Shown: positions 1,497 to 9,385, counted from the first letter of the stretch. The stretch is DNA of 64,000 nucleotides from Longimicrobiales bacterium (GCA_963664435.2 CAXXKM010000001.1:960001-1024000); one strand, 5' to 3'. Numbers and translations are program-made. The notes: a model not told the origin generated them from the letters alone.

Positions 1497-2549
1497 TCAG
1501 GCCTGAGAAGGTTTGCGAGCCAGAAAACAGTACAGCGGCGTGAAGATACCCGTCTTGCCGCCCGCAACATACGCCTCCGCGGTCCGATCGAGGAGCCGGA
1601 CGACTTCCGCCGAGCCATTCGGAAAGATCCGCAGCAGCTCGGCCAGCTTCGATCCCGCGATGATCGCCTTGCGGCCCCACGGAAGCCTTCTCAAGGCGTT
1701 CCCCAACGTCCCGTGGCGACTCTCCATGGGCTGATACCAGGGCGTGGAGGGTCCCTCCTGTACGTCCCAGTCCCTTCCCTCGATGACTTGAAATCCCGCG
1801 GCTTCGAGCGCGTGATTCACTTCCTCGAACGTGGCGATGTCGTGCAGCGCGATACCGCGCATGAGATCCTGCTTGACGGCCCGGTGCCGACCGTCGTTCG
1901 GATCGAACCGGTCCGTAAGACACATTTCCTGACCCCAGAACAGGGCACCCGGTTTCAGCACGCGGAATATCTCCGCGAAGGCACGCTGCTTGTCCTGCGC
2001 ATGGCATGTTGACTCTATGGCGTAACCCCGGTCGAAGGTGTCGTCCTCGATGGCGCTCATGTCCATGAAGCTGCACCCTATCAAGTCCACCAGGTGTTCG
2101 AGCCCCGCCTCGGCGTTCAACTTCTTCGCTTGCGCCAGCTGGACCTCATTGATGTTGATACCCACGACCCTGGCGCCGGTCTCGCGGACGACGCGGCGCA
2201 TGGGGCCGCCGATCCCGCAACCAACGTCGACCACCGTCATGCCCTGTTCCAACTCCAGCTCGGCGATCATCGCGCGCTGGTGCCGGACCTTGGATTCCTT
2301 CAGACTTTCATGAGGCGTAAGGGGCGCGAAATGCAGGGATTCACCCCAACCCCACACCATGAAGCCGTTGCACAGCTCGTAGTATTCCCTGACCGTTTCC
2401 GCGTGGTCGTAGCCGCCGGCGTCTCCGGTCTCCGGCACCGCCCGGTCGACCCAGCCGTTGAAGTATCGCACGCGACGCGCGACGCCCGATCCGCGGTACG
2501 CGTCCCTCAGCGCTTTCGACAGTTCGCCCAGTCGGATTCGGTGCCTCAA
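1497..2549 (-). CDS. Sterol C-24 methyltransferase-like (SMT/ERG6 family) SAM-dependent methyltransferase
   Basis: SMT regions WGWGESLHFAP, VDVGCGIGGP, YAIESTCHA, EIFRVLKPG; Sterol_MT_C-like end GGKTGIFTPLYCFLARKP; TTG start overlaps the P450 stop (TTGA). Confidence 0.88.
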   Translation of the reverse strand: MRHRIRLGELSKALRDAYRGSGVARRVRYFNGWVDRAVPETGDAGGYDHAETVREYYELCNGFMVWGWGESLHFAPLTPHESLKESKVRHQRAMIAELELEQGMTVVDVGCGIGGPMRRVVRETGARVVGININEVQLAQAKKLNAEAGLEHLVDLIGCSFMDMSAIEDDTFDRGYAIESTCHAQDKQRAFAEIFRVLKPGALFWGQEMCLTDRFDPNDGRHRAVKQDLMRGIALHDIATFEEVNHALEAAGFQVIEGRDWDVQEGPSTPWYQPMESRHGTLGNALRRLPWGRKAIIAGSKLAELLRIFPNGSAEVVRLLDRTAEAYVAGGKTGIFTPLYCFLARKPSQA

Positions 2550-4597
2550 GCGGGCAGCTCACGCCGCTGCTCCGTGATGCGGAACTTCAGCTTCTTGCTG
2601 GGCTTCATCGACGGAAACGGATTGAATTGGAGCTTCCGCGCGTACTTCGCCGGCGACACCTCAATCGTGAAGTGATGCGCCAGCATCAGCAGGTTGACCG
2701 TCAGGTGCATCTCCATCCACCGCGTGCCGAGACACCTGTGCGTGCCCAGCCCGTACGGGGCGAACCCGAGGCTGTCATACTTCTTGCGCGACGGCAGGAA
2801 GCGGTCGATGTCGAACTTGTGGGGCTCGGGAAAGACGTCGCTCATGTAATGCGTGGCGGTCATGGCGATGTGGATCCGTTCCCCCAGGGGCAGCTCGTGG
2901 TTCTCGACCACGCAGGTATTCATCACGTTGCGAACCGACATGGTCACGATCGGGTACATGCGCAGGCACTCCATGAGGAAGCGGTGCGTCACGTCGATGT
3001 TGGCGGGGGTGAAATCCTCCTTCCCGGGATCGCCGTTGGCGAACAGGGCATCCGCTTCGGATTGGATCCTGGCGTACAGGTCCGGCTGCGACGCCATGGC
3101 GTAGACCATGAGGCTGAACGTATCGCCGAGGTACACGCTGGCAATCAAGGCTGCGGAAAAAGAGAAGAGCAGGTTGGACTCCGGGAGAAACTGCGGGTCG
3201 CTCGCGTGCAGGCTGAGATAATCGTCCACCAGGTTCCGCGGGCCGTCCGCCCGTTGGCCGGGCGTGTTGACCTGCAACACCCGTTCCATCAGGGTGTCCA
3301 GGGCCTTCGCCCGGCGTTTCATGCCCGGGGTATTCAGCGTGAACCTGGGCAGGAGTCGGGCGATATGCACGCTCAGGGCCCGTTCCTTGTACGTCATCAG
3401 GTCGTCCATGAGATCTTGCGTATCGACGCCGATGAACAGCGGTGAAAGCTGGGCGTTGACGAACGCCCGGGACATGGACGTGGCGCGGTAGGAATCCCCA
3501 ACCGTCAAGCTCGCCATGTATGCGCGGCCCCTGTCGTAGAGCTGATCCATCTGCCCTGCCAGCCTCGCCTGGGAATAGGCCGGCGCCAGGAACTTGCGAA
3601 GCCGGAAGTGATCGGCGCCGTCCAGGGCGGGAAGGACGCCGGCCGCACCGTACACCTTCTCGAAATCGCTGAAGTAGTCCCTGGTTCTCAGGTGCTGCCG
3701 CCCCTGCTTGTGCACCCAGCGGTTCGTTTCGAGTCCGGCCAGGAAGATCAGGGGCTTCGAGAAGGGAGGGCGGACACTGAACACCGGGCCGTATTCCTCC
3801 GCGAGGTGCCCGAATAAGGCGTTCAGGTTGCCGTCCCGAATATGCGGGTTGGCCAGTAGCTTGCGCAGCGGAACCGTCGGAATCTTCTTGGAAAGAGCGG
3901 AATGTCTGCGGATTGGGCCGACGAGATTCCGAGAGACCGCATCGGCAATGGACCGGCCGATCAAGTCCATCTGGCAGACGAACTTGATGCGCTCCTCCGC
4001 CTTCTCATCGAGTTCAAAAATCAGGCGAAAGACGTCGCACGTATTGACGAGGCATACGATGACGACGTCTCTGGGGTCGGGAATCTGGTCGGTGAAGAGG
4101 ACCTTGCCGATCCGCGCCTTGATGAACCGGTCGGGCGTGCCTTCCGCAGACATCCCGTACTGTTGCCCATGCAGGACGGTGGGGGACAGCGTCCAGAATT
4201 CGCCTTCGTGGTGTTGGAGGATATCCCGTTCAACCAGGCGCGCCAGAGTAATATCGATGACCGACTCCGCACGGGACGCGAGCCGTTCGATCCAGTACCG
4301 GGCAGTGTGCTGTTCCGGTGCGTCCACGATTTCCCGCAGGAAGGGGTCCAGGACGGGATCGCCCGTTTCGGCCGGGTCCACGGCGAACAGGGATGTCAGG
4401 TCCGAGTCGAGCCGCGACCGGAAGGAGAGTTCCGCCAGCACTCCGCCGACGACGGCGCAGTTCAGTTGCCAGCCGGGTACCTGATGGAAGTAGCCGCCCT
4501 TCTCGTCGAGAAGCATCAGGATGAGTTCGTCGACCAGGCTCAGGGGTTCACCCGTCGAACTTTCCGCCGTCTCCGCCGTTTTTGCCCTGTCAGTCAT
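2546..4597 (-). CDS. GPP34/GOLPH3-family domain fused to cytochrome P450
   Basis: N-terminal LSLVDELILMLLDEKGG...VGGVLAELSFRSRL...LARLVERDIL (GPP34-like); P450 ExxR (ECLR), FDIDRF meander, heme motif YGLGTHRCLG; ATG 4597 chosen (GGAG upstream). Confidence 0.82.
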   Translation of the reverse strand: MTDRAKTAETAESSTGEPLSLVDELILMLLDEKGGYFHQVPGWQLNCAVVGGVLAELSFRSRLDSDLTSLFAVDPAETGDPVLDPFLREIVDAPEQHTARYWIERLASRAESVIDITLARLVERDILQHHEGEFWTLSPTVLHGQQYGMSAEGTPDRFIKARIGKVLFTDQIPDPRDVVIVCLVNTCDVFRLIFELDEKAEERIKFVCQMDLIGRSIADAVSRNLVGPIRRHSALSKKIPTVPLRKLLANPHIRDGNLNALFGHLAEEYGPVFSVRPPFSKPLIFLAGLETNRWVHKQGRQHLRTRDYFSDFEKVYGAAGVLPALDGADHFRLRKFLAPAYSQARLAGQMDQLYDRGRAYMASLTVGDSYRATSMSRAFVNAQLSPLFIGVDTQDLMDDLMTYKERALSVHIARLLPRFTLNTPGMKRRAKALDTLMERVLQVNTPGQRADGPRNLVDDYLSLHASDPQFLPESNLLFSFSAALIASVYLGDTFSLMVYAMASQPDLYARIQSEADALFANGDPGKEDFTPANIDVTHRFLMECLRMYPIVTMSVRNVMNTCVVENHELPLGERIHIAMTATHYMSDVFPEPHKFDIDRFLPSRKKYDSLGFAPYGLGTHRCLGTRWMEMHLTVNLLMLAHHFTIEVSPAKYARKLQFNPFPSMKPSKKLKFRITEQRRELPA

Positions 4598-8254: not shown

Positions 8255-9385
8255 TCATGTGCCGTTCCCCTCCGGCAGGTGCCCGGATGCAGCGCGACCC
8301 GTCCACTGGCGGCGTGGACTCCCCCCTGTCTCCAGATCTGCTTCCGGATAGAACTGTCGGCTATAGAGGCGGTATTTTCCGATAGGGCCGTCGGCCCGGC
8401 ACAGACGCGGAGGAGACTGGTAGCGCTTTCGCTCCCAGATGACCACGTCCTGCGCGACGAACCGCCTCTCCTCGGAAATCAGAACGCGGTTCATCAGCCT
8501 GTTGCGGAACTTCCTCGGCAGGAAGCCGAGACCGACGAAGTAGCGCCCGGGCCTCGGGACCTCCCGCGCCTGGCTGACGAGCGTCAGCTCGACGAACTCG
8601 CCGTCGACGGGGGTCGAGAGGACCCACAGCCTCGAGTCCATGCCGATCGTCTTCTCGTGAACCTCGACGAACGAGTATCCCAGGCCATGGACATGGGTGA
8701 CGGCCGATACCTCGGACTCGATGCTGATGAGCTTCGCGATGGTGCGGACGTTTTTGAAATCGAAGCAGCTCTTCAGATATGCGCCGTCGATCGAAAACGC
8801 CGTCGGCTCCACGTCGTGGTAGCCGTGCGTGTACTCCAGGTGCTCTACGTCCACGGAGTTCTCGGCGGTCTCCTGCGGATGGCCGCGGAACCGCATGGTG
8901 GCGAATCGCAGCCCGCTCCAGTCGGCCCCCGTAGGCGGCTCCTCCGGCAGGTCCCACTGCGGGGGGCGCCCGCCTACCCCGTACCACGCGAAAACCATGC
9001 CGAGGATCTCCCTGGTCTCGTAAAGCTTCAGCTTCGCAGCCCTGGGCGCGGGGGCGTTGGGCGTGGCGACGCACTGGCCGGTGGTGTCGAAGGTGAACCC
9101 GTGGAAGGGACACACCAGGCAGCCGTCCCGGACGGTACCGCCGGCCGCCGGCCCCAGGTGTGAGCCCAGGTGGGGGCAGAATGCCTCGGCCACGCAGATG
9201 CGGCCGCCGTCGTCGCACCAGGCGACGATCTCCTCGCCCATCCAGGTCTTCTCGATAAGCTTCTCTTTCCGCAGGGTCTCGCGGGTCGCGATGAAGTACC
9301 ATCCCTCCGGGAACGGAGGGAGTCGGTCGACGCGTCCCGGGATGCGGCCATTGGCATTCCTGACGCCATTGCTATTCCCGATCAT
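8255..9385 (-). CDS. Rieske [2Fe-2S] non-heme iron oxygenase, Neverland/DAF-36 (sterol 7-desaturase) or KshA-like
   Basis: FPEGWY; Rieske CPH...CPFH; Fe motif ENSVDVEHLEYTH; C-terminal DVVIWERKRY..PPRLCRADGPIGKYRLYSRQFY; start codon uncertain. Confidence 0.82.
   Translation of the reverse strand: MIGNSNGVRNANGRIPGRVDRLPPFPEGWYFIATRETLRKEKLIEKTWMGEEIVAWCDDGGRICVAEAFCPHLGSHLGPAAGGTVRDGCLVCPFHGFTFDTTGQCVATPNAPAPRAAKLKLYETREILGMVFAWYGVGGRPPQWDLPEEPPTGADWSGLRFATMRFRGHPQETAENSVDVEHLEYTHGYHDVEPTAFSIDGAYLKSCFDFKNVRTIAKLISIESEVSAVTHVHGLGYSFVEVHEKTIGMDSRLWVLSTPVDGEFVELTLVSQAREVPRPGRYFVGLGFLPRKFRNRLMNRVLISEERRFVAQDVVIWERKRYQSPPRLCRADGPIGKYRLYSRQFYPEADLETGGSPRRQWTGRAASGHLPEGNGT

Follow-up and report, generated by a model that had tools for sequence, protein, structure and literature searches.

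Counterparts of the genes reported here have been described from symbionts of sponges and corals and from nematodes. Bacterial sterol methyltransferases (SMTs) and sterol gene clusters have been described from sponge and coral symbionts (PMC10070321; Brown and Welander preprint, 10.64898/2025.12.19.695621), and SMT/ERG6 is reported to be enriched in sponge symbionts (Kelly et al. 2022, PMC9531527). The preprint describes 25 residues conserved in all functional SMTs tested, lists the S-adenosylmethionine (SAM) motif, H90 and E195 as essential, and allows for inactive SMTs requiring a different substrate. As of 2023, no enzyme had been identified for C-26 methylation or for several further modifications of sponge sterols, according to PMC10070321. 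The nematode 4-SMT, which acts on 3-oxo sterols at an acceptor other than C-24, has a changed Region I (PMC6997595).

Here we analyze four adjoining genes in a 64,000-nucleotide stretch of a Longimicrobiales bacterium (GCA_963664435.2, CAXXKM010000001.1:960001-1024000; hereafter the window), which encode an SMT, a GPP34-P450 fusion, an RND permease and a Rieske oxygenase. A preliminary description had read them as an operon that turns animal-type into ergosterol-type sterols by Delta7, Delta22 and C-24 steps. The residues of the SMT and the motifs of the P450 argue otherwise. We instead propose, with moderate confidence, that sponge symbionts widely exchange these genes as a module for tailoring and exporting lipids, most probably sterols taken in from outside. 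The source genome of the window, G000, is 96% complete, and C1, C2 and C3 denote its contigs.

Predicted enzymes and pump of the module

To place the SMT, we took the 80 best of 502 confirmed SMT loci; 12 phylum labels are represented among them, and most come from sponge-associated metagenome-assembled genomes (MAGs). Individual loci are cited by L-numbers. The protein contains the Sterol_MT_C domain (58.3 bits against a cut-off of 21.7; CMAS also matched) and is about 40% identical to its canonical neighbors. The branch that divides its clade from nine of these is about 1.6 changes per site long (SH-aLRT 100). This tree is a quick, midpoint-rooted version with long canonical branches and no eukaryotic rows, and we therefore claim no donor or order of transfer. 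Using yeast residue numbers mapped from the motifs in the preprint, we find that the SMT keeps the SAM motif DxGxGxxGP, H90 and E195, as well as 23 of the 25 residues of functional SMTs, the two changes being T78N and F89L. All 25 are retained by none of the 80 clade members, compared to seven of the nine canonical paralogues. The changes typical of the clade are T78N, D79G, Y81M, E82V, F89L, Y223Q, W225M and Ile at 249, of which M81, L89, Q223 and M225 occur in 80/80 members, I249 in 79/80 and V82 in 74/80; Region I reads M-V-W-G-W-G in place of Y81-E-Y-G-W-G86. The long-branch position of this paralogue clade and its fixed changes in Regions I and IV suggest that the enzyme is probably not an ordinary C-24 methylase. 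The C-24 alkylation first proposed is thus disfavored, since the protein departs from the residue set of all functional C-24 SMTs, and the strong conservation of the clade points to a changed substrate and not to decay.

The SMT at the Nitrospirales locus L030 (78% identical to ours) is very probably the one listed as ‘Nitrospira sp., coral reef’ SMT 2 of 2 (PMC10070321), because the gene order matches IMG ids ...270 to ...279. It deviates at four of the 25 residues, from which we deduce that it should be inactive on desmosterol and 24-methylenecholesterol. Five genes from it in the Nitrospirales cluster lies a canonical SMT that yields (epi)codisterol, a compound that the same study names as the substrate of hypothetical 26-SMTs (PMC10070321). 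We also inspected 50 carrier genomes, taken from the best 80 loci for their long contigs and of unreported completeness: a clade SMT co-exists with a canonical SMT in 16, and no canonical SMT was found in the other 34.

The P450 half of the fusion protein combines intact haem binding with a remodeled I-helix. Among 64 close relatives, the haem ligand Cys622 is present in all and the ExxR residues E543 and R546 in 63 (alignment A1, which leaves out one P450 row, an L046 paralogue with an internal stop). Alignment with CYP51 and taxadiene hydroxylase sets A-S-V-Y-L-G against A-G-H-H-T-S, so that Tyr489 and Leu490 stand in place of the acid and the catalytic Thr. Tyr489 is found in 64/64 relatives, as is Leu or Val at 490. 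Loss of this acid-alcohol pair is typical of P450s with substrate-assisted or non-hydroxylating chemistry. Neither family suggested in the preliminary description fits: for CYP51, A-G-H-H-T is replaced by A-S-V-Y-L and identity in the structural match is 19%, and for CYP61/CYP710 the substrate recognition site 4 (SRS4) motif F(L/M)F(A/S)QDA(S/T)(S/T)S is absent. The structure model matches many P450s equally. G000 encodes a second GPP34-P450 (C1:882881-884845), in which the Asp-Thr pair is intact and whose neighbor is an MdoC-like acyltransferase; C1:73773-74402 gave another match to the GPP34 domain.

The structure model places the Rieske protein among the non-heme iron oxygenases of the KshA structural clan. 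Its nearest fold is KshA (Z 34.3, rmsd 3.0, 319 aligned residues, 22% identity; next family Z 26), and the profile match reaches 188.7 bits over nearly the full length. The Rieske ligands C70/H72/C92/H95 and the iron ligands H182/H187/D313 are intact in our protein and invariant in 40 aligned relatives. The Rieske cluster, the non-heme iron motifs and KshA_C are common to KshA and Neverland/DAF-36 and therefore do not discriminate between them. Neverland/DAF-36 has an N-terminal membrane anchor; the highest 19-residue hydropathy of our protein is 0.97, indicating no hydrophobic anchor. The name Neverland appeared on none of the 10 clusters looked up among the 150 best matches, and no Neverland structure was found among the structural matches. 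Among the Rieske look-alikes, an Atlas cluster at rank 11 of 30 bears the automatic name cholesterol 7-desaturase. An outgroup Rieske gene (33%) on the cyanobacterial Planktothrix agardhii plasmid NZ_LR882940.1 (L105) has P450s, an emopamil-binding protein and a squalene/phytoene-synthase-family gene as neighbors, which we count in favor of a sterol-type role. In total this possible sterol or triterpenoid tailoring cluster holds three P450s, three Rieske proteins and a carbamoyltransferase.

In the preliminary description, the fourth protein was set beside RND-superfamily members that move sterols or hopanoids. We find an AcrB-type pump, not one of the sterol-sensing class: besides ACR_tran it matches MMPL at 27.5 bits, with no Sterol-sensing or Patched match, its best solved relatives are AcrB/MexB/MdtB-type pumps, and the paired Asp motif is present. 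No membrane-fusion protein (MFP) or outer-membrane factor (OMF) is encoded within the window, and the partners would have to come from a paralogous OMF-MFP-RND operon at G000:C3:998478-1004344. An MFP accompanies the pump in 25 of 48 RND loci, which points to export.

Distribution, substrate context and local history

We counted co-occurring genes in the 60 loci of at least 20 kb among the best 80, with partners located by targeted tblastn. The GPP34-P450 is present in 57 loci, the Rieske gene in 51, an RND pump of our type in 38 and an MMPL-type pump in 17; a flavoprotein partner occurs in 26. The three enzymes plus a pump are found together in 46/60 loci, bearing out the expectation that the four genes travel together. 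Both pump types never co-occur (0/60), and the use of two unrelated pumps in one slot suggests that transport is integral to the module. Insertion of the RND gene by chance was considered and ruled out by this mutual exclusion. Two MMPL representatives that were scanned have Sterol-sensing Pfam matches above cut-off; the MMPL gene of L030 lies just beyond the fetched flank. At six loci (L029, L030, L040, L047, L048, L051), an outer-membrane beta-barrel, mostly with a TPR protein, is encoded beside the MMPL-type module, and these are candidates for sterol uptake or shuttling. A search for gene fusions returned no SMT fusion and one MMPL-Rieske record, which is weak evidence in either direction; the single records P0306 (Rieske plus MMPL fragment) and P0077 (KshA_C fragment plus SMT) may be frameshift or contig-edge artefacts.

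Sequence comparison indicates that the module is exchanged horizontally between phyla. SMT identity reaches 87-91% across phyla, and matches to the SMT, P450 and Rieske genes are confined to 2 of 36 genera among 61 relatives, with no match to any of the three in four same-genus genomes that are 96-100% complete. In other members of the genus, the slot between a spondin and an amidase gene holds variant gene sets. Rieske, P450 and RND genes are joined by an MpaB/Lcp oxygenase in L100, by a 3-beta-hydroxysteroid-dehydrogenase-like short-chain dehydrogenase/reductase and a steroid 5-alpha-reductase in L102, both without SMT, and by both an MpaB/Lcp oxygenase and an SMT in L103 and L104. In our reading, Rieske, P450 and pump form a constant core, with the SMT, flavoprotein, MpaB/Lcp oxygenase and 5-alpha-reductase as exchangeable extras. 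G000 also holds the TPR protein and an MpaB/Lcp gene outside the window. Standing alone far from the window are the module's flavoprotein (83%; C3:615415-616773) and an ERG4/ERG24-type reductase (81%; C1:1131741-1132877), and an MpaB/Lcp-type oxygenase directly follows a second RND paralogue (51%) at C3:1538657-1543329 (L087).

Several contexts tie the module to sterols. In the Nitrospirales loci L030 and L096, it is contiguous with a canonical SMT, SdmB, SdmA, ERG24, CYP51 and SMO-OSC (OSC, oxidosqualene cyclase). G000 itself has no match for PF13243, TIGR03463 or PF08491, thus no OSC, squalene-hopene cyclase or squalene epoxidase was found, and its best CYP51 match is only 25-30%. An OSC-grade match with the DCTAE motif occurs in 4 of the 50 carrier genomes and in none of the other 46; weaker cyclase matches were seen in seven other carriers, and the two inspected have a hopene-cyclase-type motif. 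With no OSC found in G000 or in 46/50 carriers, the module likely acts on a sterol-type substrate from outside. This agrees with the earlier proposal of scavenging, made from the absence of OSC and squalene epoxidase genes in the window; the substrate is very probably sterol-like. The donor could be a neighboring symbiont as well as the host. For steroid degradation, G000 yielded one strong PF00890 match, which by eye resembles a succinate dehydrogenase/fumarate reductase subunit (Hsa genes were not searched). A lone squalene-synthase-like gene (C1:1259226-1260080; best TIGR01559, 120 bits, below cut-off) stands in G000 with no cyclase found.

All four minus-strand genes of the preliminary description were recovered as intact open reading frames (ORFs) with the expected Pfam domains, as was the TTGA coupling of P450 and SMT (Table 1). 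Gaps of 173 bp (Rieske-RND) and 250 bp (RND-P450) separate the other genes. Pairwise dN/dS of 0.12-0.39 against close relatives indicates purifying selection on all four, and their third-position GC content of 0.79-0.85 is below the 0.86-0.96 of three flanking genes. Promoter and terminator scans of the locus returned chance levels only (1 against 1.3 and 5 against 5.0).

Table 1. Coordinates of the module genes and associated features in the window
Feature	Position	Strand	Remarks
P0004, Rieske + KshA_C	8255-9385	-	376 aa; Pfam KshA_C 86.5 bits, Rieske 60.4 bits
P0003, ACR_tran RND permease	4848-8081	-	1077 aa; ACR_tran 528 bits
P0002, GPP34-P450 fusion	2546-4597	-	683 aa; GPP34 residues 21-221, P450 residues 253-670
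P0001, SMT with Sterol_MT_C	1497-2549	-	350 aa; only SMT match in G000
TTGA overlap, P450 stop and SMT TTG start	2546-2549	-	also in L001, L002
120-bp RND remnant, orientation opposite to module	1364-1482	+	87.5% to window 7271-7390

The co-orientation of the four genes is real in the window and in L001, a second genome with identical gene order and 98-99% DNA identity, but it is atypical. Among 38 loci with all four genes (at least 50% identity), 30 have the order RND-P450-SMT and seven the order RND-SMT-P450, with a convergent, downstream Rieske gene in all 37, and only L001 shares the order of the window. The order presented as a four-gene operon is thus a by-product of local rearrangement, the co-orientation having arisen by local inversion or replacement. 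Relative to L003, which has the same flanks, the segment from about 1.5 to 8.1 kb is inverted and the spondin, Rieske and amidase genes are collinear; no terminal repeats were seen at the inversion ends except an RND scar. In the same-genus loci L100 and L102, an intact RND gene comes after spondin; the remnant aligns collinearly with it at 89.8% identity and is the scar left by that pump gene. The TTGA overlap is likewise derived, as only two of 33 other P450-SMT junctions carry it (L001, L002). In the remaining 31, the SMT starts just downstream of the P450 stop, with ATG in 29 and TTG in two; the codon at this usual start position reads ATC in the window. The Rieske gene adjoins the amidase gene and is 83-98% identical in 14 of 18 same-genus genomes (three of which, G005, G011 and G014, match at the coordinates of L006, L001 and L003 and cannot be counted separately from those loci). 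For the SMT, identity is 67-69% with six same-genus genomes and 87-91% with Rhodothermales and Bryobacterales MAG copies. Taken together, the inversion, the RND scar, the residence of the Rieske gene in the genus and the closer kinship of the SMT to copies from other phyla make the block a chimera of a resident Rieske gene and an SMT-P450-RND piece acquired from elsewhere; transcription of the four genes as one unit is putative.

The host is very probably a sponge-associated member of the Gemmatimonadota, as the closest SMT locus (99% identity) is labelled Longimicrobiales and 7 of the 12 best DNA matches carry a sponge metagenome label. No RNA data set is among the matches listed. All 30 bins of the window are covered by sponge-metagenome contigs, with no single listed piece spanning the full stretch. 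Elsewhere in the window, a lower-GC part (24103-33542) holds an Mza-type defence cluster (Vsr, C5 methylase, MzaB, MzaC, MzaD, MzaE). A 1358-aa ORF at 15743-19819 on the minus strand, with a Walker-A-like stretch and no Pfam or PADLOC match, overlaps the end of a PDC-S01-like AAA/DUF4143 gene at 19819-21090. Contig C2 of G000 carries 17 tRNA genes arrayed within 2.8 kb (689401-692178).

Proposed activity and competing explanations

In the pathway that we propose, a host- or neighbor-made sterol would partition into the cell membrane, where the KshA-fold Rieske enzyme may oxidize the ring B/C region by Delta7 desaturation or hydroxylation. The GPP34-P450, in which the acid-Thr pair of the proton relay is missing, would then carry out a non-standard oxidation, most simply a desaturation, with GPP34 serving as membrane tether, after which the divergent SMT would methylate an acceptor that is not the Delta24 of desmosterol or 24-methylenecholesterol. 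Finally, the RND pump, borrowing an MFP and OMF, would move the product to the envelope or the host. Our leading, still tentative candidate for the methyl acceptor is a different side-chain alkene, either one produced by the P450 or Delta25, where methylation would fall on C-26. It is unlikely that the SMT carries out ordinary C-24 methylation on a nucleus modified beforehand, and equally unlikely that its acceptor is not a sterol; ring C-4 of a 3-oxo sterol, as with nematode 4-SMT, is somewhat less likely again.

Several points weigh against an imported-sterol module. The activities of its enzymes are all predicted; the Rieske protein is only about 22% identical to KshA, and the P450 less than 20% identical to any solved P450. 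Redox partners are missing from the neighborhood of the module, and a search of G000 for the KshB-type reductase domain (PF00175) returned no match. The pump belongs to a broad drug-efflux class. Loci were chosen by SMT similarity and many are kin, so the co-occurrence counts are not independent. A Delta25 substrate would itself need import, as 34/50 carriers show no canonical SMT, and C-26 methylation is disfavored by the bulky Ile at 249 in the clade, given that the published mutants needed a small residue there for repeated methylation. The nearest solved relatives of the flavoprotein partner, LkcE and the ‘putative aminooxidase’ PDB 2b9w (which we take to be a fatty-acid isomerase), leave room for non-sterol lipids.

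The original proposal, in which animal-type sterols become ergosterol-type through desaturation at Delta7 and C-22 and ordinary methylation at C-24, would explain the Sterol_MT_C domain with its 23 of 25 conserved residues and the look-alike cluster auto-named cholesterol 7-desaturase, and CYP710 also has Ala where the Thr falls in our alignment. We nevertheless regard it as improbable, given the fixed Region I and IV changes of the SMT, the missing CYP710 motif and the deviation of Nitrospira SMT 2 of 2 at four of 25 positions, which by the statement of the preprint should leave it non-functional. The presence of the clade beside canonical SMTs in 16/50 genomes also suggests a different job. 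Detoxification, in which antibacterial host steroids or terpenoids are inactivated and pumped out and no useful lipid is made, has about the same low standing. An AcrB-type pump with frequent MFP (25/48), a patchy distribution that skips four nearly complete same-genus genomes, and variable accessory oxidases including MpaB/Lcp would all suit such a role. Methylation and desaturation, however, render a lipid less polar, which speaks against it, as do the module copies inside de novo sterol clusters of Nitrospirales and the substitution of RND by MMPL lipid pumps.

A non-sterol lipid, such as a fatty acid or linear isoprenoid undergoing methylation and desaturation of the kind seen in pathways to methyl-branched or furan fatty acids, seems less probable still: the flavoprotein resembling LkcE and 2b9w, the CMAS match of the SMT and the lone squalene-synthase-like gene without a cyclase fit it, but the Sterol_MT_C domain, the KshA fold and the ERG4/24, 5-alpha-reductase and OSC-cluster neighbors do not. 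The least credible of these explanations holds that the GPP34-P450 is a secreted effector that binds phosphatidylinositol 4-phosphate (PI4P) and acts against phagosome maturation, with its neighbors incidental, as proposed for GPP34_L, which reportedly occurs in sponge symbionts only and has been seen to be expressed in situ (PMC11706023). Against this, the fusion lies beside an SMT in 57/60 loci and its N-terminus lacks a signal-like hydrophobic stretch. Moreover, the position of GOLPH3 R90, which we take to be the PI4P-binding arginine, is Val, Ala, Ile or Thr in 64/64 close relatives (in a weak alignment, E 0.013).

The imported-sterol module offers three candidate enzymes with altered active sites, conserved across many phyla, and would connect the symbiont SMTs with the sponge-specific GPP34-P450 fusions, which were published as separate observations. 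It also carries a warning that many ‘ERG6’ counts in sponge MAGs may not reflect C-24 methylases, and bears on the origin of the unusual ‘sponge’ sterols that serve as fossil markers. Should symbionts edit the sterols of their host, the logic of sterane biomarkers and our view of host-symbiont lipid exchange would be affected. A bolder version, which we consider speculative and rather unlikely, is that the clade is the missing non-C-24 methyltransferase, with symbionts of a dozen phyla rewriting and exporting host sterols and 26-methyl and cyclopropyl sterols being partly bacterial. The clade would then methylate codisterol-type Delta25 sterols at C-26, or turn a P450-made alkene into a methylated or cyclopropyl product, and the 26-methylstigmastane biomarker would be partly a bacterial product. 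The lead for this version is the (epi)codisterol made by the neighboring canonical SMT in the Nitrospirales cluster.

Comparison with known systems

Literature searches returned no paper describing the module, although figures and supplements outside the search might hold one, and the four-gene combination stands as the preliminary description had it, not known as a described pathway. Its parts are each published, whereas these searches turned up neither the combination nor the altered chemistry. The SMTs and sterol clusters described from bacteria of sponges and corals belong to the same family and habitat, from which our system differs in that its SMT is a divergent paralogue in a genome without a cyclase; neither text, in the parts examined, discusses a Rieske, P450 or pump partner (PMC10070321; 10.64898/2025.12.19.695621). 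GPP34_L shares the GPP34 plus P450 architecture and the sponge-symbiont distribution (Microbiome 2025, PMC11706023). The main text of that study, which proposes an anti-phagocytosis effector, contains neither ‘sterol’ nor ‘methyltransferase’ (0 occurrences), whereas our fusion lies within a sterol-type module and has a remodeled I-helix.

The Rieske protein shares the Rieske and KshA_C domains and all metal ligands with KshA and Neverland/DAF-36, and KshA is its nearest solved fold; it differs from KshA in its low identity and in the lack of a KshB-type reductase found in G000. Among pumps, it is the HAE1 RND type (AcrB/MexB/MdtB) that ours belongs to, paired Asp motif included. The MmpL/HpnN lipid pumps are of a different, sterol-sensing class, and MMPL-type pumps take the place of ours in the 17 loci mentioned above. 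Nematodes offer a parallel in function: with DAF-36 and STRM-1/4-SMT, these sterol auxotrophs remodel dietary sterol by a Rieske desaturase and an SMT homologue (Zhou et al., PMC6997595). The 4-SMT is described as 21% identical to Erg6 and without the Region I aromatics (PMC6997595). By comparison with that description only, our SMT has lost these aromatics in part (Y81M, F89L) and keeps W83 and W85; with its W-G-W-G retained it is much closer to C-24 SMTs, which makes the likeness one of analogy and not of membership. Lastly, the clusters of steroid genes, or CSGs (ERG24-CYP51-OSC; Kelly et al. 2022, PMC9531527), are likewise horizontally moved sterol genes of sponge symbionts. They serve de novo synthesis, whereas the module described here contains none of these three core genes and mostly occurs without them.

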